A DNA stretch of 64,000 bases from a virus: the IMG/VR virus record IMGVR_UViG_3300047650_000023; one strand, 5' to 3'. The notes under the pieces are model-generated. The model was given only the letters and a program-made list of their open reading frames with translations, was not told where the DNA came from and did no database searches. Every line of letters begins with the position of its first letter. Within the stretch, counting starts at the first letter, position 1. Made by a program: the position numbers and the translations under genes. This document shows positions 7,125 through 46,833 of this stretch, piece by piece.

Positions 7125-7468
7125 TATATATTTTCCTTCTTTCTATTTCGTTAAGTGCTCACAAAACCGCCCTTCTGTTATACCTGAACTAAATCTATTT
7201 CTACAGAAATTTTTCCATTATTATACCTAGCAGTCCCAAAATCCATTTTGACAAACCGTATTTGTCTTTCCTCTTTAATTAATTTATTATTAATATCATA
7301 ATAAAAATAGTCAACCTTATCACCAGTTTTATATTCATTCATTTCAAATAATCCTCTTGATTTTTATATTTCTGTTTTCTTGAATATACCTTATCACTAG
7401 ATTTGATACGAGTTACAGGACTAAACTGCCATGTCCTACGCTTCTTAGACAACTTCGATACATGTACC

Positions 7469-7714
7469 CTAACTGTTATTGCTTTCACTGTTATCACTTC
7501 CTCTACATAGATTACTGTTTACTATATCATTTTCTATTTCTTTGCTGTGTGTTATAACTTCCACATCTATACTACCCTTGTAGAAGGTAGCTATAAATCC
7601 TTCAGACATATCCCAACCATATTGCATTTGAAATAGTTTATATCCTTTTTCAATAATAGCTTGCTTTAAAATCAACCATTTTTCCATTGTCTCAATGCGT
7701 TTAGTGGTAGTCAT
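7469..7714 (-). CDS. Hypothetical phage protein
   Basis: GAGG upstream; ORF in array. Confidence 0.6.
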   Translation of the reverse strand: MTTTKRIETMEKWLILKQAIIEKGYKLFQMQYGWDMSEGFIATFYKGSIDVEVITHSKEIENDIVNSNLCRGSDNSESNNS

Positions 7715-7735
7715 TATTAATCCTCACCAAATATA

Positions 7736-8128
7736 TTATTGATCGGTTTCAAAACCAAATATCCAATATGGATATCCATTTGATACATTACAACCTTCCA
7801 TAATTAAAGTTAATTTAATTGGCTTATCATAATATTTAGAAAGAAATTTTTCGATATCTTCTGGTTGTCTTTGTGAAAAATATTGTCCTTCGTTATGCCA
7901 TACTTCTTTACAACACCTGTTATACTTTTCATAATTCCATTGATGAAGTCTATCTGAATATACTAAGGACGATTTATCTTTATTGTAATTATTTTTCCAC
8001 ACGACAAACTCATCATAGCTATATGGATATTCATACTTAGTTTTTCTCACTGGATTTCCTTTAATATCACAATAATCAAAATTAACAACACAACCATTCA
8101 TATCAAGCATAATTATCTTCCCTTTCAA
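7736..8128 (-). CDS. Hypothetical phage protein
   Basis: 130-aa ORF bounded by junction palindromes. Confidence 0.7.
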   Translation of the reverse strand: MKGKIIMLDMNGCVVNFDYCDIKGNPVRKTKYEYPYSYDEFVVWKNNYNKDKSSLVYSDRLHQWNYEKYNRCCKEVWHNEGQYFSQRQPEDIEKFLSKYYDKPIKLTLIMEGCNVSNGYPYWIFGFETDQ

Positions 8129-8147
8129 TCCATATCAAACAAGTTTT

Positions 8148-8423
8148 CTATAGTACTTTTACAGCTTTTTCAAAATCTACTCTGTCAAGCTTATCTTCAG
8201 CAAATTCACAATTCTTGTCGCAATATTGAAATTGAGTCATATCAGATTTTGCAACAATACAAAATTCTGGTATTTCATCAATAGGGAAATAATTGTTTAA
8301 TCCAAACACTTTAAAAACCCTATCAAGTTGATTATAATCTTTCATATAATAAGTATACCATGTTCCATCTCTTAAAAATTCCGGCTTAAAACCAATTTCC
8401 TTTAAATTTTCAAGTGTATACAT
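8148..8423 (-). CDS. Hypothetical phage protein
   Basis: AAAGGAG upstream. Confidence 0.65.
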   Translation of the reverse strand: MYTLENLKEIGFKPEFLRDGTWYTYYMKDYNQLDRVFKVFGLNNYFPIDEIPEFCIVAKSDMTQFQYCDKNCEFAEDKLDRVDFEKAVKVL

Positions 8424-8456
8424 AAAAATCTCCTTTCAAAATGTGTTTCAAATGAC

Positions 8457-8663
8457 TCATTTATTAACATTCAATATTTCAAGAGCATGGTGTAAGTTAT
8501 TAATTACGGTTACAGGATGTTCCCACACACCACCCACGTTAGTTCCGTCATCTTTTAAATACTTATACTGAATATAATCATCACCTAAAGGATTTATAAT
8601 TCTACACCACATATGAAGACCATTTTCAGTAATACATATTTCAACGAATTCATTATCTTTCAT
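8457..8663 (-). CDS. Hypothetical phage protein
   Basis: Start moved to MKDNE (GAAAGGA upstream). Confidence 0.6.
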   Translation of the reverse strand: MKDNEFVEICITENGLHMWCRIINPLGDDYIQYKYLKDDGTNVGGVWEHPVTVINNLHHALEILNVNK

Positions 8664-8679
8664 ATATATCAATCCTTTC

Positions 8680-8874
8680 TTATACAATTTCAAATCTATT
8701 ATTATAAATTTTCTTTTGAAGTTCAGCTGTGTTATACTTCCATTTACTTTTTTCAAATGTCACTTCATAATAATTATCTGTTATTTTATTTGCATGATAA
8801 ATAGAACCCTTAGTTATTTCATTAATATGTGAAATAAAATTAAACTCATCTGGTATTTTATAATATTGTTTCAT
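8680..8874 (-). CDS. Hypothetical phage protein
   Basis: AAAGGAG upstream. Confidence 0.6.
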   Translation of the reverse strand: MKQYYKIPDEFNFISHINEITKGSIYHANKITDNYYEVTFEKSKWKYNTAELQKKIYNNRFEIV

Positions 8875-8913
8875 GATTAACTCCTTTCGACTACCATAAA
8901 TCTCATAATTGGT

Positions 8914-9055
8914 TCACAGTTTGATATTTGCTTCAAATGGCATATCATTTCCCATAACCATATATGGCTTGAAGCGCCTCGTGTTCATTTTTAAGTATCT
9001 CCATTCCTAAATTAGTAAGTTTAATTTTTACCTCATTATTAATATTATAATCCAT
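8914..9055 (-). pseudogene. Probable frameshifted or internally deleted small phage gene
   Basis: Starts MDYNINNEVKIKLTNLG after GAAAGGA and stops at 36 aa; another frame reads PYMVMGNDMPFEANIKL* to a stop abutting a junction site. Confidence 0.4.
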
Positions 9056-9078: not shown

Positions 9079-10646
9079 ATAGAATCTGTAATTGCTAGGG
9101 TTTAAGAAACCATATTATTTTCACATAATTTACCAAACTGCCAACCATTATTATGGCAAATAATTTTTGCTTTCTTCATATAAATGGATAAACTATTTTT
9201 ACGTTCAGTCATTTTAATTAAATTACCTTCTGCATTTCTTATTAATGCATCATGACTTCGTTCACCTCCGCAAAAACCATATACCCAACCAGTTTGATTA
9301 TTATACTTAATCATGTCATTCATAAACACACCATTCCTAAAAGGCACATTTTTATTAGCTCTAGTTGCTGTTACATTTTTATGGCTTCTGCCTTTACGTG
9401 GAATTGATTCATGTAAAGAACGTTTCTTTTTACGAAACTGTTTATACATAAAATATTCTTTCGGATTATACTTAATGATTTTAATTCCACTAATAGTTAT
9501 CGCATCATTATAATGTGTTTTATCCAATTCAAGTTCTTTCCTATTTGGAGTAGTTTCATTTCCATAAGTAATTATAGCATTCGGATATTGTTGAAAAGTA
9601 CGTTTTCTTACAATATTCATAAATACACTTTCACGATATTGTTTAACTTTCTTATGCTCTTTCATCCACTTGTATAAAATACTACCTTGTTTATGATTCT
9701 CAGATGTATGACAATCAGAACATACTGTAATTAAATTATCTGCTCTGTTTGTACCACCTTCTGATTTATATAAGATATGATGAGTGTGCAAAATCTTATT
9801 TTTCTTGTGACATACTTGACAAGTATATTCATCTCTTGCAAAAACAAAATATCTCACGGTGTAATAATCTTTGCAATCACCATTTTGATAATCTTTTCCG
9901 CTGATATCTGGATTAATCATTTTTGCAACATCAAACTTACCAACTTCAATATGAAGTTTTGGATTAAAAACTAAGGAACAAAATGTATCAATCCATTTAA
10001 ATGTTGAATTTACTCGACTGTTAATACTAGGAGGCAACCAATTGTCTTTACGCTTACGATTGAGGAATCTATCTTGTCTATATCTAGTTTTCTTGTTACG
10101 TCTGTGCCTTCTAAATGTTTTTCTTACAATCATTAAATTATGAATATCTTGACGTAATTCAATTTCACCTTTTACTAATACTTTATCATCAGATGTAATT
10201 GCTATGCCAATATGTTTTGCTCCAGTATCTACACCAACATTAACTTCCTGTACAGTTTCACCTGTCGGATAAAGCAATTGAATAGTAAAAGGATTATACT
10301 TAACAATCTTTGCTTTATTCTCTTTCAAAAGCAATCTTGCCTTTTTATTAGAACAAGGCATAAGAGGTTGATTTTTTAAATTTTTAACGAATACTCTCAA
10401 GTTTCGTTCTCCTTTCAGAGTTGTTTCCCTTCGGCAATGTTCTAATCGCTTGTCATTCGACCAATTCTAGGTTGACCGCATCGTGTTTTTCAATGCTTTT
10501 ACAGAGCCTACACAGAGCATGGGACTAGGGAATCATCCCAAGGTGTGATAACGATAAGAACGTAGTAATTTAATACTTAGCCTATTGCTTGATACACGTA
10601 AGTGTATGATATTTCTATCAAAAACCCAAGCAAACCTACAATCTAT
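9079..10646 (-). mobile_element. Non-autonomous IscB-omegaRNA unit bounded by inverted 18-bp junction sites
   Basis: ATAGAAtctgtaATTGCTAGGGTTT (9079-9103) is an imperfect inverted repeat of 10622-10646; no tnpA in the window. Confidence 0.6.
9102..10400 (-). CDS. iscB: IscB RNA-guided endonuclease (OMEGA, Cas9 ancestor)
   Basis: PLMP N-terminus (QPLMPC), RuvC-I VGVDTG, Arg-rich bridge (RRHRRNKKTRYR), RuvC-II HIEV, HNH (HTHH...GGTNRADNL...CH), RuvC-III HYNDA; TTG start after AAAGGAG. Confidence 0.95.
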   Translation of the reverse strand: MRVFVKNLKNQPLMPCSNKKARLLLKENKAKIVKYNPFTIQLLYPTGETVQEVNVGVDTGAKHIGIAITSDDKVLVKGEIELRQDIHNLMIVRKTFRRHRRNKKTRYRQDRFLNRKRKDNWLPPSINSRVNSTFKWIDTFCSLVFNPKLHIEVGKFDVAKMINPDISGKDYQNGDCKDYYTVRYFVFARDEYTCQVCHKKNKILHTHHILYKSEGGTNRADNLITVCSDCHTSENHKQGSILYKWMKEHKKVKQYRESVFMNIVRKRTFQQYPNAIITYGNETTPNRKELELDKTHYNDAITISGIKIIKYNPKEYFMYKQFRKKKRSLHESIPRKGRSHKNVTATRANKNVPFRNGVFMNDMIKYNNQTGWVYGFCGGERSHDALIRNAEGNLIKMTERKNSLSIYMKKAKIICHNNGWQFGKLCENNMVS

Positions 10647-37469: not shown

Positions 37470-40220
37470 ATAGCTAAACAATTAATGTGTCAAAAGTTTA
37501 TTTATAAAATACATAGTGCTAGATTAAGAGATAATAAATGGAAATTAACATTACCTATTTATGAAGCAAGAAAAAATGATGAGATAATTGCTTTAGCAGA
37601 TAGTTCTACATTGAGATTTATTGATAAACTGAATAACATTACAGATTCAGAATTTAAATGCAAACAAATAAAAAAGGAATTAAGTGTTATTAAGAATCAA
37701 CCTAAATCAAAATCAAACAGAGATAAGATTCGTAAATTATATTCTGATCTTGATGCAATCCAATTTAAACCAGATTATATGTGTTTAATTATTGATAAAA
37801 ATTCAGATTATAATAGAGCAAAAAAAGGTTTTTATATTAACGGAATTAGATATCATAGATATGTTGGTACTCCTAATGGGGTAAAAAATGAAACTATTGT
37901 ATTTGTAAGTGATAGACATTATTCTGAATTAAGTAAACATATTGAGAACGGTAGAAATCCTAATGTTGAATTAGTACCTGCTAAATTTGAAGCATATAAA
38001 GCATTAGATTGTAGTGCGTCAATTCTAGTATCTAATCCTAAAGGCGTATTAGTTGTTGATGATTGTATTACTCATTTTAAATCCGATACTATACATATTG
38101 ACGATACAAATGATGGAGAACCACAATTATTTACTGTAAAAGATGATGATGTGGAATTATCGGATAGCGATGGATATGGGCTTATACTTCCCTCTTTAAG
38201 TTTACAATGGAATAAAGATATTGGAGAAAAAGAACCATATATAAGTAGTGGTTACTGTGTGAGAAATTCTTTTTGCAAGGGAATGGTTTTTTGCTTTGAC
38301 TTCATAAGGTTTGCGTATGAAGTTGCCGGAACCGATATAGTATGTGATGCTTGGGAAAATTGGCATAACATAAATGATATTGAAATAATTTTAACCACAT
38401 CTATGCTTAAACTTTGGGATAGTTATGATAGTATTGAAGATTATTTGTCTAAGTGTGAAAAGAATGGACATGGTTTTAGTATAACTAAATGCTGTCCCAA
38501 AGAGTTAGAGAATGAACGTAATTTAAACTATCAATTTATTCAAAGTTATAATTTTACCGATCAACAAATTCAAGGATTAATTCAACCGACAATTGATGAA
38601 ATAAAAGATGTTTTAGGTGGAGATTATTATAAAAGTCTTTTATTTTTAAAAGGTATTTATTTAAATGACGATAATGTAAATGCATTAGATTGTGATTTCG
38701 CTAAAGCTCTAATGATTGATAAAAGAATGATTAATGACCCATTCGTAAGAACCAGAATTTATCAAATGATTAAAAAGCGAATTACAGAAGCAAAAGTCGG
38801 CGTTATTAAAGTACATTCAAATTTTTCAATTGTTAGTGGTGATCCTTATTCTTTATGTCAACATATATTTGAATTAGAAGTAACAGGTTTATTAAAATCT
38901 GGTCAGGCATATTCAAAATATTGGTTAGATAAAGAGGTAGATAAAGTTGCTTGTTTTCGTGCGCCGATGACTTGTCATAACAATATCAGAATTTTAAATA
39001 TTACTGCGACAGATGAAATGATAGACTGGTATCAATATATGACTACTTGTACTATATTTAATTCATGGGATACTGTCGCTCATGCCCTTAACGGATTAGA
39101 TAAAGATTCTGATCAAATCTTAACCACAGACAACAAATACATTATAGAAAATGTACGAAATTTGCCAGCAATTATGTGTATTCAACGTAGAGCAAAAAAG
39201 AAAATTGTCACAGAAGATGATTTAGTTAAAGCAAATATTAATAGCTTTGGAGATGAAATTGGCTCAACCACTAATAGGATTACAAGTATGATTGAAGTTC
39301 AATCTCAGTTTTCTGCTGATAGCGAAGAATATAAAGTTTTAGATTATCGTATTAGATGCGGACAATTATTTCAGCAAAACGCTATTGATAAAACGAAGGG
39401 TATAATAGCAAAACCTATGCCTAAAGAATGGTTTAATAGAGATTCTAACAAAATACGTCCAGAAGATAATGAAGAAACTATTAAATTAAAAAAGTTTAAT
39501 CAATCAATTGTTGCAGATAAGAAGCCATATTTTATGTGTTATATATATCCTCAAGATATGACTAAATATAAAAAATACATAGCTAATACTAATCGTAAGG
39601 CTCTTCGTGAATTTAGAATTACAATGCAAGAATTATTTGATAAACCTAACAAAACAAAACGTGAGAAAGAATTTATTAATTATTATTATCAGAGGATGCC
39701 AGTAGGTATTAGTAAATGCGTTGTAAACAGAATTTGTTGGATTTTTGAAAAAGAATTTGATGGATATTTATCTAAAGAATTAGCTAATGTTGATTTTGAT
39801 TATAATATTTTAAAACATAATGTTGGATATAATCAAAAGACTTTTAATGATATAAAAAATATTTATGATTTATATATTAATAAACTTCAAGATTATAGAC
39901 AGTTAGTAAAACGTGAGCATATTGATTCTGACGAAGCTACAGTTGCTCGTGATGTATTAAAACAAGATTTTAAAAAAGAATGCGAAAAGATTTGTTCTAA
40001 ACAATATGAATTATGTGATATTGTTTTAGATATATGTTATCAAGATAATAGATCTAAACAATTTGCTTGGGATGTATGTGGAGATGTGATTATTGAAAAG
40101 TTATTAAAAGAAAATAATAATACAATTATGTATCCTGAGTTAGATGAAAATGGTACAATTGAATATGGTGGTAATTGGTTTACTATGCGTTCAAAACAAA
40201 TAGGAGGTGATTTAGATTGA
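37470..40220 (+). CDS. yonO: YonO-like single-subunit, double-psi-barrel RNA polymerase (eukaryotic RdRP-related fold); probable ATA start
   Basis: SDGYG, VRN..CKGM, GDPY, FRAP and DxDxD (DKDSD) motifs; SPbeta-like position before the late module; GGAGG lies 9 nt before in-frame ATA. Confidence 0.85.
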   Translation: MAKQLMCQKFIYKIHSARLRDNKWKLTLPIYEARKNDEIIALADSSTLRFIDKLNNITDSEFKCKQIKKELSVIKNQPKSKSNRDKIRKLYSDLDAIQFKPDYMCLIIDKNSDYNRAKKGFYINGIRYHRYVGTPNGVKNETIVFVSDRHYSELSKHIENGRNPNVELVPAKFEAYKALDCSASILVSNPKGVLVVDDCITHFKSDTIHIDDTNDGEPQLFTVKDDDVELSDSDGYGLILPSLSLQWNKDIGEKEPYISSGYCVRNSFCKGMVFCFDFIRFAYEVAGTDIVCDAWENWHNINDIEIILTTSMLKLWDSYDSIEDYLSKCEKNGHGFSITKCCPKELENERNLNYQFIQSYNFTDQQIQGLIQPTIDEIKDVLGGDYYKSLLFLKGIYLNDDNVNALDCDFAKALMIDKRMINDPFVRTRIYQMIKKRITEAKVGVIKVHSNFSIVSGDPYSLCQHIFELEVTGLLKSGQAYSKYWLDKEVDKVACFRAPMTCHNNIRILNITATDEMIDWYQYMTTCTIFNSWDTVAHALNGLDKDSDQILTTDNKYIIENVRNLPAIMCIQRRAKKKIVTEDDLVKANINSFGDEIGSTTNRITSMIEVQSQFSADSEEYKVLDYRIRCGQLFQQNAIDKTKGIIAKPMPKEWFNRDSNKIRPEDNEETIKLKKFNQSIVADKKPYFMCYIYPQDMTKYKKYIANTNRKALREFRITMQELFDKPNKTKREKEFINYYYQRMPVGISKCVVNRICWIFEKEFDGYLSKELANVDFDYNILKHNVGYNQKTFNDIKNIYDLYINKLQDYRQLVKREHIDSDEATVARDVLKQDFKKECEKICSKQYELCDIVLDICYQDNRSKQFAWDVCGDVIIEKLLKENNNTIMYPELDENGTIEYGGNWFTMRSKQIGGDLD

Positions 40221-40963
40221 GTATAATTTTAAATGAGCGTGAGTATGCTGAGAATTCAATTAGTACAGGATATATAAATAATAATAAACCTTCAGAAACA
40301 CTTAGTATTTTAGCAAAATATTATTACTCTGAAGGTAGAAATCAAAAGGAAATATATAAGTTACTTGAAGATTTTATGATTAAAAATTATAAAAACTTTA
40401 ATCCTGTCAAATGGAGTATTACAATTAATAAGCAAATTAAACAAGTGGAAAAATATCATTTAATTGAAGTGAATGGTGTTTGGATAACGCAAAATGAATT
40501 AGATACTATATTACAAATTAAGAATAAAATTTTAGAAAAATTGGCGTTTACAATATTATGTTTAGCTAAATTAAGTAATCGAATTAATCCCAATAATAAA
40601 GATTGGGTTAATCGTGAGGATAAAGTAATATTTAAACTTGCTAGAATTGCTTGTACGATTAAAAAGCAGAGTTTATACATAAATGATTTAAAAACTTTAG
40701 GATTGATTGAATATAGTAAAAAAATTGATAATGTAAACACTAATGTTTTATTTGTAGATGAAGATAGTGAAAGAGTTTTATTTATAAATGACTTTAGAGA
40801 ATTGGGTTATGAATATCTATTTTGGAAAGGAGAAAAGTTTTTTAGATGTGGCGAGTGTGGTGTTCTAAGAAGAAAAAATACTAATAATCAAAAGTATTGT
40901 AAGGATTGTGGTGAAGGAATAAATAAATTAAAAAGCCTTGATAAGTATTATCAAAATAAATGA
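40217..40963 (+). CDS. Protein coupled to the RNA polymerase gene, C-terminal zinc finger
   Basis: 4-nt overlap with the RNAP stop; CGECG...YCKDC. Confidence 0.75.
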   Translation: MSIILNEREYAENSISTGYINNNKPSETLSILAKYYYSEGRNQKEIYKLLEDFMIKNYKNFNPVKWSITINKQIKQVEKYHLIEVNGVWITQNELDTILQIKNKILEKLAFTILCLAKLSNRINPNNKDWVNREDKVIFKLARIACTIKKQSLYINDLKTLGLIEYSKKIDNVNTNVLFVDEDSERVLFINDFRELGYEYLFWKGEKFFRCGECGVLRRKNTNNQKYCKDCGEGINKLKSLDKYYQNK

Positions 40964-41099
40964 TTTTTGATTCAGAAAAGTCTCACAAACCTAGACTGTA
41001 TGCGGTCTGAGAGGATGTGTGAAATTCTATCTAATATGTATAGTATAGAGAAATGATTTTTAATTTATTTCAACAAAGAAAGTTTATCATGATGATAGA

Positions 41100-42155
41100 C
41101 TAATAAATAATTTCAAATGTGGGCAGTTCTACAAAACGTAAGTCCCACAATATTAACAAGTCCTTAAATGGATAAATATTATTTTCACTTTGGCTTTACG
41201 CCACGATTAGTTTAATTTCACTTGTGTATGCTGAACCGACAGCGACTCATTAAATGAATTCGGAATTAATCCATTTTGTGTTCACAGCACGTTAGTGACT
41301 GCTAAATAGCGTGATTTATTTTTAATATAATAACACAACAGTAAATCCAATAGATACGGAGCTGTCTTTCTAAGTATGCTTTAAGTGCATATCGTCTATT
41401 GGTAATTGTGTTTTTATATATAAGTGATTTTTTGATTTAGGCATTACGCCAGTGATTTAGTTTATGCTCGAAGCGTAAGGCATGGAGCAGGGATATAGGA
41501 TATACGCTATATCCTCTTATTAATATCATAAAACTGCAATTCTATATCATATGTACTCATCTTTAATTAGAATATAATTAATGCTCATGAGTCAATTATT
41601 ACTTTTCTTATGGAAATGTGTTCGTTTCCACAGATTCTCTTATATTCAAGAGTCTATGTCAGTAGTGGGCAGATAATGCATTACATTTGATACCCTAACA
41701 TAAATAGACTAATTGTGTGACTAATGGGCAATGCACAAATAACTACTATGCTCTTAATTGAGCCAGAGATTTTATATCTCTAAATAAAAATAATGTATCC
41801 AATATTTTCATATGGATAGAGGTATATTTTGCGGAGTATATCGGTGCAACGGAATACGTTCCTATAATGCACAGTCGGAATAGAGACACTAAACCTATTC
41901 CATTGGATGATCCGACATCCTAAAAATCTGAAATACTTATCAGACGAATGTGCTGATGGTTGACAAGCAACAGAAAAACTTGTATTCATGGAGATGGCAG
42001 ACATCTATAAAATCGGATTTACTTTAATTAAGTCCCACAATTTACAGTGGGTACATGCCCATGAGGGCAAATTTTTAACTGACTGGCAGGGTTGTTCAAT
42101 AGGACTTCCCTGCTATTATTCTGATTATTAGGCCGTCTAAATTAAGACGGTCATA
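41100..42155 (+). ncRNA. Candidate large structured non-coding RNA(s)
   Basis: About 1 kb with no plus-strand ORF of 60 aa or more, GC-richer than flanks, more than 15 complementary stems and internally repeated motifs. Confidence 0.55.
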
Positions 42156-42200
42156 ATGATATATAAAAATTTAAAAGAAAAAGGAATGAGTTATTAACTA

Positions 42201-42380
42201 ATGATTGAAGTCAGTCAAGCAGCCGCATTTTACATAAGAAAGCACTCCCCAAGTTCTCACATAAGTATGGCATCAAAAAACAAAAATTCAAATGGAAAAA
42301 CATATTTTGCTATTGAGGAGGCTATTACATTTAAACTCTTGAAAGAATTTCACGAGAAAGAATTAAATGGTCAGTTGTAA
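42201..42380 (+). CDS. Small hypothetical protein (59 aa, MIEVSQAAAF...)
   Basis: Translated by hand; below the ORF-track cutoff. Confidence 0.6.
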   Translation: MIEVSQAAAFYIRKHSPSSHISMASKNKNSNGKTYFAIEEAITFKLLKEFHEKELNGQL

Positions 42381-42446
42381 GTACAGTATAATACAGTAAA
42401 TTGATAAACTAAAAATAAATTTGAAATAAGAAAGAAGAATATATTA

Positions 42447-42674
42447 ATGGCAAAGATCAGTAAAAGTATGTCGTTTAAGGATGCAGAAATTAATTTAGAA
42501 GATTTATCACTTACAGAATTTAAGAAAGATAATACTACTGAATATAATATTATGGATATCCTTAAAGAGTGGAACGGTATTAAGGGTATATCACTTGTAA
42601 TTAAACTTGATAATGATGTAAATACAATTGGCGAAGATGACGAAAGTTCTGACGGAGAGGATGACGAACTCTGA
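42447..42674 (+). CDS. YonK-like protein
   Basis: Resembles SPbeta YonK (INLEDLSLTE...YNIMDILKEWNG...SLVIK) and is syntenic with it. Confidence 0.6.
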   Translation: MAKISKSMSFKDAEINLEDLSLTEFKKDNTTEYNIMDILKEWNGIKGISLVIKLDNDVNTIGEDDESSDGEDDEL

Positions 42675-43897
42675 TAGATGTTAAATCTGAATTAGAGAAA
42701 TATGGACTTACTGAAGAACAGTACGAAAAATGTTTAGATGATGTTGCTAATAAAATAAATGGTATTAGTGATGATGATTGGTCTGAAATTGTTACAAGAA
42801 ATAATTTACATATTCATTATGATACTTTAAGAAAAGCGCAACAAACTATTTTCGGTGGTTATTTTGTAAAAGAATATTATAATCAAAAAAAGATAACATC
42901 TAAAACTCAGTTGTCTCAAGCTAAAGAATTAATTGGAGAACAGTTAGTTCTTAAAAAACAAATTCAATCGGATAAATCGCAAATTACAAAAATTCAAAAT
43001 AGTTTTATTAAATCAATTTCAATTGCAGAAGAATTATCTCAAATTTTTGAAGATAATAATTTTCAAGTAAATGTTCCTGAATATTGTCATGTTGAAATAG
43101 ATGATAGTAGTGAATACAAAATGATTATACACATAACAGATTGGCACATTGGCTATGTGATTGACAACTGTAAAGGGAATTATTATAATTGGGAAATTGC
43201 AAATGAACGTATTAATAAACTTATAAATGAATGTCGTAAATATATAAAAATGTATGACATAAAAAAAGTTTATGTTATAAATACTGGAGACAATATTGAA
43301 CATGTCGCAATGCGTAAAAATCAATCTCAGTTTTGTGAGTTTAATCAGTCAGAACAAATTAATCATGCAATTGATTTAATATTTAGATTTTTAACTGCTT
43401 TATGTAGAGATTGTTATGTTGAATACGATAGTATTTATGGCAACCATGATCGCATGAATGGTGATTTGTCTGCTAATTTAGACGGTGATAATGCAGATAC
43501 AATTATAAAAGAACAAATATCTAAATATAAAGAATTATCCAAAACTGTAAGATTAAATGTAATTCAAAGAAGACATACAGATAAAGAAATTATTGTTGAT
43601 ATTGAAGGATTAAAGTGTAAGTTTTCTCATGGGAATATTGGAATAAAAAATGACAAACTACAATTGAGAAATGAAATGTCTATGAATAATGAATTTTATA
43701 ATTTGTCGTTTCAAGGGCATGAACATAATTTTGGTGTCACATCAGAAAATAATGGTAGATATATTATACATACGGGTTGTCTTTCTGGATTTGATGATTA
43801 TTCGGTTGGATTCGGATGTTCCACAGTTGCTTCTCAAACAATTGTTGTTGTAAGTAATAATAATGTCGAATTAATAAAAGATGTAGTTTTAATTTAA
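42674..43897 (+). CDS. Calcineurin-like metallophosphoesterase (YonJ-like); probable ATA start
   Basis: DWH, GD, GNHD, SHG, GHEH motifs; frame open 79 codons upstream of 42911 to an ATA overlapping the previous TGA. Confidence 0.8.
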   Translation: MDVKSELEKYGLTEEQYEKCLDDVANKINGISDDDWSEIVTRNNLHIHYDTLRKAQQTIFGGYFVKEYYNQKKITSKTQLSQAKELIGEQLVLKKQIQSDKSQITKIQNSFIKSISIAEELSQIFEDNNFQVNVPEYCHVEIDDSSEYKMIIHITDWHIGYVIDNCKGNYYNWEIANERINKLINECRKYIKMYDIKKVYVINTGDNIEHVAMRKNQSQFCEFNQSEQINHAIDLIFRFLTALCRDCYVEYDSIYGNHDRMNGDLSANLDGDNADTIIKEQISKYKELSKTVRLNVIQRRHTDKEIIVDIEGLKCKFSHGNIGIKNDKLQLRNEMSMNNEFYNLSFQGHEHNFGVTSENNGRYIIHTGCLSGFDDYSVGFGCSTVASQTIVVVSNNNVELIKDVVLI

Positions 43898-45980: not shown

Positions 45981-46028
45981 ATATAACACAAGTTGGGGAA
46001 TTGCCTATAGGCGACTCCCCTTTTATAT

Positions 46029-46118
46029 GGAGAGTTGGCAGAGTTCGGTTTAATGCGTCTGTCTACTAAACAGATAATGGTAAAACATTCGTGAGTTCAA
46101 ATCTCACACTCTCTTCCA
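46029..46118 (+). tRNA. tRNA-Ser with anticodon ACT (long variable arm, encoded CCA)
   Basis: Acceptor GGAGAGT/ACTCTCT, anticodon stem TCTGT/ACAGA, loop CTACTAA, T-arm GTGAG-TTCAAAT-CTCAC. Confidence 0.85.
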
Positions 46119-46182
46119 TAGCAGATTGAATCTGTTAAATTTGATAAGGGTTGTGACCGCACCACAGAAGGAGAAATAAATT

Positions 46183-46632: not shown

Positions 46633-46707
46633 AGGTTAATTAAAGTATAAAAACAATTTGGGAAATTGCTTTTGTGGGAGTTGCCTTATAGGTGACTCCT
46701 TTTATAT

Positions 46708-46782
46708 GCAGATATAGTGTTAATGGTAGCACACGAGTTTTCCAAACTTGGAGTGACGATTCAAATTCGTTTATCTGCTCCA
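46708..46782 (+). tRNA. tRNA-Gly (TCC)
   Basis: Acceptor GCAGATA/TATCTGC, U73, CCA; anticodon loop TTTCCAA; T-loop TTCAAAT. Confidence 0.9.
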
Positions 46783-46833
46783 TAGTAGATTAAATCTACT
46801 AAATATTTTATTAAATTTTTGGAGGTATTTTTT

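Follow-up and report, generated by a model that had tools for sequence, protein, structure and literature searches.

Type III toxin-antitoxin loci are recognised by a promoter, tandem repeats, a terminator and a toxin, with published ranges for the length and number of the repeats (Blower et al. 2012, PMC3401426). Phage PhiTE carries 1.5 repeats of pseudo-ToxI in its wild-type form, and its escape mutants expand these repeats to neutralise the toxin ToxN (Blower et al. 2012, PMC3475682). In phage SPbeta, part of the transcript made by YonO is a non-coding RNA that had not been annotated (Forrest et al. 2017, PMC5467207). Here we analyse a non-coding tract of ~1.2 kb (40964-42200, + strand) in a 64,000-nucleotide (nt) stretch of viral DNA, IMG/VR record IMGVR_UViG_3300047650_000023 (hereafter the window), which lies between a p248 zinc-finger-like gene and p59, an open reading frame (ORF) of 59 amino acids (aa). 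The reading that we favour, with slightly better than even confidence, is that the tract forms the patchwork head of the late block of an SPbeta/c-st-like Clostridia phage, and that its 3' module is an antitoxin-mimic RNA for PBECR4 (Pfam PF18813), a predicted BECR-fold RNase. The sequences show that the tract is non-coding and of mosaic make-up, that the module has bacterial homologs and covarying helices, and that in bacteria the RNA is linked to PBECR4. That the module is transcribed, from which promoter, and that it acts as a decoy are points that we infer.

A candidate small-RNA gene at the 3' end of the tract

From its sequence, the interval 41875-42078 reads as a self-contained small-RNA gene, with a candidate -10 box, a 5' hairpin, 1.5 repeat units and an intrinsic terminator, all on the + strand. 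The putative start of the module (41863-41924) comprises a TATAAT box at 41863-41868, the 5' hairpin at 41875-41917 and a small GGATG/CATCC hairpin (41908-41923) followed by the linker TAAAAATC, which has its counterpart in the CTGACACCTAAAATC of the bacterial copies described below. The candidate promoter is this lone TATAAT, lacking a good -35 and read from the sequence by comparison with the bacterial loci. One full unit follows (41925-41979), containing hairpin A (41939-41943 with 41953-41957), hairpin B1 (41959-41962 with 41968-41971) and an A-run, and then a half unit (41980-42020) with hairpin B2 (41992-41996 with 42002-42006). Two predicted pseudoknots join 41927-41930 to 41998-42001 and 41964-41967 to 41979-41982. 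A terminator scan and the predicted fold both give an intrinsic-terminator-like hairpin, TGCCC-ATGA-GGGCA followed by AAATTTTT, at 42056-42078, which is likely the 3' end of the small RNA, as it occupies the same place as the terminator of the bacterial homologs. The window copy has one full ~55-nt unit and a half unit, compared with two units in the bacterial homologs.

The repeat unit is homologous to sequence in one of these bacterial genomes, G218, with 81% identity over 64 nt between 41925-41988 and G218 (BLAST, E 5e-10). The covariance-model scores of the window copy, which was part of the model seed, are not counted as support. In an alignment of six units (A5), 92.6% of cells were paired and four of nine pairs were compensatory, with slid controls giving 22-61%. 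The alignment of four two-unit RNAs (A6), whose pair count covers both B hairpins and the two pseudoknots, had 98.4% of its 64 cells paired and compensatory changes in 7 of 16 pairs, with slid controls giving 27-53%. In these RNAs, base pairing joins the 5' tail (UCYG) to the loop (CRGA) of the unit 2 hairpin B, and the loop of the unit 1 hairpin B to the bases that open unit 2. Both B hairpins and both pseudoknots are retained in the phage copy, with compensatory changes of its own, and hairpin A of unit 2 is the only helix that it lacks. Hairpins A and B and the two interlocking pseudoknots thus appear to be kept by compensatory changes, for which the alignments provide good, if not final, evidence. 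Judged in this way, the sole demonstrably conserved RNA in the tract is ~200 nt long. The initial annotation of the locus had proposed a structured RNA across 41100-42155; covariation upholds the proposal for part of the tract, the 3' module, and the bulk gives it no such backing.

Bacterial homologs and the PBECR4 gene

A BLAST search of 400 Clostridia genomes returned one real match, that of 41925-41988 to G218, and it is the single real match to the tract in ~800 sampled genomes of the class and phylum of G218. G218 has two tandem copies of a unit of ~52 nt, then an intrinsic terminator and, after it, a gene for a 200-aa PBECR4 protein. The repeat RNA matched no family in Rfam, and is thus uncatalogued. 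Using covariance models R1 and R2 to find further copies brought the total to eight genomes (G218, G296, G322, G410, G091, G124, G061 and G029), and in all bacterial copies the first unit is preceded by a sigma-A-like promoter box and the conserved linker. A pattern scan of IMG/VR for the core of the unit gave chance matches only, inside one coding gene family.

The surroundings of these copies fall into several arrangements. G218, G124 and G061 each have two units and a terminator, with PBECR4 directly downstream. In G029 a single unit (L090 2242-2299, - strand) is convergent to the PBECR4 gene and lies 214 nt beyond its end, not upstream. The copies in G296 and G322 (L074/L075 1454-1571) have two units with their own promoter and terminator and sit between a lipoprotein-like gene and rplU-rpmA, while G410 has one unit and a terminator before a sugar nucleotidyltransferase gene, and G091 has one unit with no PBECR4 neighbour. 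Counting from the side of the protein, 151 sampled genomes contained seven PBECR4 genes in five genomes, three with the RNA directly upstream and one with it adjacent. The PBECR4 proteins of G218 and G124 are only 29% identical, which argues that the pairing of RNA and PBECR4 is old, and not the result of one recently spread cassette. PBECR4 has no sequence relative in the PDB and no model in PADLOC, and our literature search found no paper linking it to type III systems.

A putative antitoxin mimic

The loci in G218, G124 and G061 resemble toxIN, cptIN and tenpIN in having a promoter, two tandem repeats of 52-73 nt, a terminator and a predicted RNase of 200-220 aa, and the number and length of the repeats in the bacterial homologs lie within the ranges in PMC3401426. 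They differ from these systems in that the putative toxin is PBECR4, in that the RNA is also found without the toxin, and in that the repeats of G124 have diverged enough for Tandem Repeats Finder to miss them. Downstream of the terminator, where these three genomes have the PBECR4 gene, the phage has p59 and a YonK-like gene. Searching the window by tblastn revealed no PBECR4 gene, PADLOC did not recognise p59, nor did we find in the family of G218 a prophage related to this phage. With no toxin gene after its terminator, the phage copy would be an orphan RNA rather than a toxin-antitoxin locus, and for a phage RNA without any PBECR4 gene in 64 kb the most likely role is that of an antitoxin mimic. 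We propose that the small RNA of 41875-42078 stands alone at the head of an RNA-polymerase-dependent late operon, and that this antitoxin-like RNA would hold a putative PBECR4 toxin of the host inactive during infection, as pseudo-ToxI of PhiTE does for ToxN.

The comparison with pseudo-ToxI (Blower et al. 2012, PMC3475682) extends to several features. Both are phage-borne, toxin-less, type III-like repeat RNAs of ~1.5 repeats within a non-coding stretch. However, the RNA families are unrelated, and the putative partner here is PBECR4 and not ToxN. The two also differ in their pseudoknots, since wild-type PhiTE cannot form one full pseudoknot, whereas the phage copy here retains all of the helices that make up its own.

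A number of observations weigh against a role as a PBECR4 antitoxin mimic. Four of the eight bacterial RNA loci (G296, G322, G410 and G091) have no PBECR4 neighbour, so the RNA may have a role of its own, and three of the seven PBECR4 genes in the 151 sampled genomes are without the RNA. The phage copy is missing hairpin A of unit 2, and 1.5 repeats are insufficient for protection in PhiTE (PMC3475682). The covariation stops short of final because it draws on only 4-6 sequences and the pseudoknot pairs were picked by eye before they were counted. Lastly, the module leaves ~700 nt of the tract (41160-41870) unaccounted for. A broader version of the proposal would take in this remainder as well, treating the whole tract as an anti-defence RNA island of several unrelated decoy or regulatory RNAs, first to be transcribed by the phage single-subunit polymerase, in which the 3' module would be a working mimic of the RNA antitoxin of a so far undescribed, PBECR4-based and type III-like abortive-infection system, and the orphan 700 nt would hold further decoys against defences yet to be discovered. 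We give this version rather little credence.

A non-coding tract between the polymerase module and the late genes

Upstream of the tract are a gene for a YonO-type single-subunit RNA polymerase (37485-40220, 911 aa) and the p248 gene (40217-40963, 248 aa), which overlaps the end of the polymerase gene. Downstream, p59 (42201-42380, 59 aa) is the first ORF, and is followed by a YonK-family gene (42447-42674) and then by a YonJ-type metallophosphoesterase gene. Pfam and PHROG assignments of these flanking genes agree with the original placement of the element after the RNA polymerase module and before the late genes. By its polymerase, the closest named phage is Clostridium phage c-st, at 44% identity. 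The window matches a JGI metagenome contig at 100% identity, and an identical p248 protein is recorded on a second contig, of 188 kb. The metallophosphoesterase (42671-43897, + strand) is listed as 328 aa starting from TTG at 42911, but its relatives are of 397-414 aa and align unbroken from 42671. As the frame from 42671 is open without an ATG, GTG or TTG, the start is probably CTG at 42671 or ATA at 42674, overlapping the YonK stop (CTGA).

The tract is non-coding. It contains no ORF of at least 80 aa on either strand between 40964 and 42200, and the longest stop-to-stop frame, of 74 aa, is about what chance would give for its composition. Translation with code 4, or with TAG or TAA read as Q, opened no gene, so that the earlier statement that there is no plus-strand ORF holds for both strands, at this length, in four codes. 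The six longest frames had no match in Pfam at E up to 5, and ARAGORN found no tRNA or tmRNA. The limits first proposed, 41100 and 42155, do lie inside an ORF-free tract, the true span of which is the larger 40964-42200.

Composition, folding and the single-RNA reading

As the initial annotation had it, the tract is richer in GC than its flanks (0.30-0.35 compared with 0.22-0.27 in the flanking coding sequence), and every stem that it named is present and appears in minimum free energy or centroid folds. To judge these folds against chance, z-scores were calculated for 150-nt windows relative to dinucleotide shuffles. The sole extreme value on the + strand was that of 42025-42174, with z of -8.8 (-6.8 for 42010-42180), a region with two very stable hairpins at 42084-42115 and 42124-42160, just upstream of p59. 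The remaining + strand windows ranged from +0.2 to -3.5, with a mean of about -1.5 compared with about -0.3 in flanking coding sequence. In all, 15 of 16 + strand windows in the tract were negative, and the mean for the - strand was about -1.1. There is, then, a modest but consistent shift of the + strand towards structure, plus one very stable 3' hairpin cluster, and folding beyond chance is not confirmed for most of the tract.

Two further + strand structures stand out in the interior. A 95-nt, two-helix hairpin at 41325-41420, followed by a T-rich run, coincides with inverted repeat I10 (93% complementary) and appears in the centroid fold, its outer helix formed by ATATAATAACACAA and TTGTGTTTTTATAT and its inner helix by CCAATAGA and TCTATTGG. 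A terminator-like hairpin with the core AGGATATA/TATATCCT lies at 41490-41515, as identified by the terminator scan and the fold.

The claim first made for the locus was that of a single large, ornate RNA of ~1 kb, of the ROOL or GOLLD kind or of a new class. In its new-class form this would be an RNA with long-range closure, such as that of TGTGGG at 41117 with CCCACA at 42034, and the first product of the phage polymerase. It can appeal to the raised GC, to the negative z-scores of 15 of the 16 windows and the greater structure of the + strand over the - strand, and to the SPbeta counterpart, where a long non-coding stretch forms the 5' portion of the transcript. Nevertheless, outside the last 150 nt the z-scores are modest, there are terminator-like hairpins within the tract, and the 3' module carries its own promoter and terminator in bacteria. 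Moreover, the segments have differing relatives and the bulk has none in the collections searched. With pieces that form a mosaic, internal hairpins resembling terminators and a conserved RNA of only ~200 nt, we consider a single RNA of ~1 kb very unlikely.

Nor is the tract a recognisable member of a known family. It shares with ROOL, GOLLD and HEARO the properties of being phage-borne, non-coding, GC-richer than its surroundings and in a setting often near tRNA genes, but differs in having no covariance-model match to any of them. The cmscan of the whole window against Rfam 15 at gathering thresholds placed no family in the tract, and a scan of 40700-42600 with E up to 10 gave three chance matches, all with E >1. 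ROOL and GOLLD, the identities first suggested, went unmatched even at E up to 10, as did OLE, raiA, the group I/II introns and tmRNA. Drum RNA (RF02958) had no match in the window or at the G218 locus. As far as covariance models can tell, ROOL, GOLLD, OLE, raiA, introns, tmRNA and drum are thus excluded, and we see no evidence for a new giant RNA like ROOL or GOLLD. The same search recovered two tRNAs and a HEARO RNA from other parts of the window, which indicates that it works on this DNA. The HEARO RNA (10420-10633, - strand; 84.4 bits compared with a gathering score of 83) immediately precedes a 432-aa ORF (9102-10400, - strand), and the two are arranged as in IscB-type elements for RNA-guided nucleases, here in a phage.

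Mosaic make-up of the tract

Comparison with related loci shows different pieces of the tract to have different relatives. The sole close relative at this spot is L021, a 1.6-kb Logan contig from SRR29681754, in which p248 is 73% identical. Its DNA aligns with the window at 75% identity up to 41038 and patchily to ~41155. Past this point, L021 has instead a gene for an IS1595-type transposase with an N-terminal zinc ribbon (L021 1080-1625), which begins 316 nt after p248 and just downstream of a TAAGTTCCACAAT motif. The 5' segment that the window has in common with L021 (40964-41160, + strand) contains a hairpin at 41080-41101, also present in L033, and a TGTGGG...CCCACA hairpin, and the fold z-score for 41050-41199 is -3.5. 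L033 1168-1201 is 91% identical to 41072-41105, a 34-nt stretch spanning the first of these hairpins.

More distant relatives show how variable the site is. Three IMG/VR genomes related by polymerase and p248 at ~50% identity have, after p248, either tRNA arrays and GIY-YIG genes or almost no gap. Relatives of the metallophosphoesterase/exonuclease module, 60-84% identical, have varied layouts, and late-module relatives share with the tract only the 34-nt hairpin and a 13-mer motif. Likewise, blastn and nhmmer searches of the tract against 16 + 25 related loci gave nothing beyond these two elements. The tract DNA had no similarity to GenBank phages, to PLSDB plasmids or to the remainder of the 64-kb window, leaving the ~700 nt of 41160-41870 without relatives in any collection searched (GenBank phages, PLSDB, related loci and ~800 genomes). 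As the pieces have different relatives and lie at an insertion-prone site, the tract is, on these comparisons, a mosaic, most of which (41160-41870) is orphan.

In six of the related loci (L004, L006, L010, L014, L002 and L005), the apparent gaps after the p248 homolog proved to be tRNA gene arrays, with internal similarity of ~55-85 nt. Degenerate tRNAs were considered for the tract too, since relatives hold tRNA arrays there, and no tRNA-like match was found. In the window itself, tRNA-Ser(ACT) and tRNA-Gly(TCC) (45990-46140 and 46660-46805) are each preceded by a GC-rich hairpin and TTTTATAT and followed directly by TAGYAGATTRAATCTRYTAAAT, a palindromic box of 22 nt that the window has at no other place; the tract lacks this flanking cassette (hairpin and TTTTATAT before, 22-nt box after the CCA). 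L014 (6001-9808) and phage c-st (L022 5980-9913) both have a YonO-type polymerase gene that is divided into two parts, with a GIY-YIG endonuclease-like ORF between the halves in the former and an extra ORF, CST178, in the latter, which suggests an intron or an intein-like insertion.

Repeated boxes and their possible functions

The 13-mer TAAGTCCCACAAT occurs exactly twice in the 64 kb, at 41139-41151 and, inside a hairpin (42032-42054), at 42029-42041, both on the + strand, so that the copies stand at the two ends of an 890-bp block. Intergenic copies of the consensus TAAGTCCyAyAATAT ahead of late genes are confined to the window, L021, L032 and L033. The sequences suggest either that the 13-mer is a late promoter core or that it is the scar of an insertion which brought in the 890-bp block, and in the latter case it would be a recombination site. 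For a promoter speak the TATAAT within the 13-mer in two of the related contigs and its confinement to positions upstream of late genes; for an insertion speaks the insertion sequence (IS) lying right after the copy of the motif in L021.

The second kind of repeat is that of the GGCNTTACGCCA...GATTAGTTTA motif at 41192-41225 and the GGCNTTACGCCA...GATTTAGTTTA motif at 41440-41475 (both + strand). The pattern noticed at the outset, GGC-N5-GCC...GATT(T)AGTTTA, indeed has exactly two occurrences in 64 kb, starting at 41192 and 41440, and similarity around them is not significant past ~45 nt. We rejected a paralogous origin of 41163-41330 and 41413-41575 as two small RNAs, as their alignment scored 2.7 standard deviations above shuffles with one shuffle higher, and also the idea that ATATAACACAA is a shared promoter box, as it was not enriched.

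An insertion scar would fit with 41160-41870 being functionless filler, the debris of mobile DNA at a hot spot between the two 13-bp sites, left by repeated insertion and loss of IS elements, homing endonucleases and tRNA arrays, with only the small-RNA module functional. The exact 13-bp direct repeats flanking the block agree with this, as do the transposase gene of L021, starting just past the same motif, the IS elements after the polymerase gene in phage c-st, the GIY-YIG genes and tRNA arrays found here in relatives, and the lack of homologs for the bulk. However, no remnants of coding sequence or of tRNAs were detected in the tract, its GC is raised and its + strand fold bias consistent, and both the long hairpins and the 45-nt motif repeated within the tract look as if they had been maintained. 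We regard filler as an unlikely account, if one with some claim to attention.

Alternatively, the tract might act mainly as DNA, as a control region of the late operon in which the boxes TAAGTCCCACAAT, GTGGGCAG, ATAGACTAAT and GGCNTTACGCC would be promoters and sites bound by the polymerase, by the zinc-finger protein p248 or by ParB-like proteins. Several short boxes do occur exactly twice, and only here, in the 64 kb, and the 13-mer family is restricted, in four related contigs, to intergenic positions upstream of late genes. A loosely similar box also lies within the region of SPbeta that is bracketed by primers as the YonO start, although the likeness is of 11/15 bases, was defined after the sequence had been seen, and has by our own estimate a chance probability of ~0.13. 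Against a control region, 1.2 kb is more than would be needed and the covarying RNA helices are left unexplained, so that we think this account quite improbable.

The SPbeta parallel

The patchwork late-block head that we favour has a counterpart in SPbeta, SPbetaL1 and BUCT082, where the order runs from yonO, with a p248-like gene, through yonN, which encodes HU, to a near-ORF-free gap of 1.5-1.7 kb and then yonK and yonJ. The likeness takes in the YonO-type polymerase, the small gene for a DNA-binding protein after it, >1 kb of non-coding sequence with raised GC (0.39-0.42 in the SPbeta-type gap compared with 0.33-0.34 for the locus), YonK and a YonJ-type metallophosphoesterase. The primers used for primer extension in PMC5467207 map to 1635-1658 and 1851-1876 of L080 (SPbeta), positions that put the YonO start 285-476 nt downstream of yonN and no less than 1.2 kb ahead of the yonK ATG. 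By analogy, the parallel supports transcription of our tract as the first part of a late transcript.

In sequence, the gap and the tract are not alike: blastn of one against the other gave nothing below E 0.3. The SPbeta-type gap (L080 1375-3055; L025, which is BUCT082, 7243-8961) contains an above-threshold match to DUF3800-VIII (47.5 bits) and a sub-threshold one to skipping-rope (29.6 bits), neither of which was matched in the window by the Rfam scan. SPbetaL1 and BUCT082 show 77% conservation of this gap over 1 kb, and it includes pieces of ~100 nt and ~55 nt (50-100 nt) that are common to unrelated Bacillus and Brevibacillus phages. The SPbeta-type gap may thus be a cluster of small phage RNAs, and that the gap is itself a set of small motifs, with pieces from unrelated phages, argues against a single giant RNA in the tract.

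From SPbeta to this Clostridia phage, >1 kb of non-coding, structured sequence has kept its place between the YonO-type polymerase gene and yonK, and the late transcript may thus begin with a slot favoured for RNA cargo, such as tRNAs and small RNAs. If the 3' module is indeed a working antitoxin mimic, it would be the second natural case, after pseudo-ToxI of PhiTE, of an RNA that disarms a toxin-antitoxin defence, and the first phage RNA mimic aimed at a PBECR4 nuclease.

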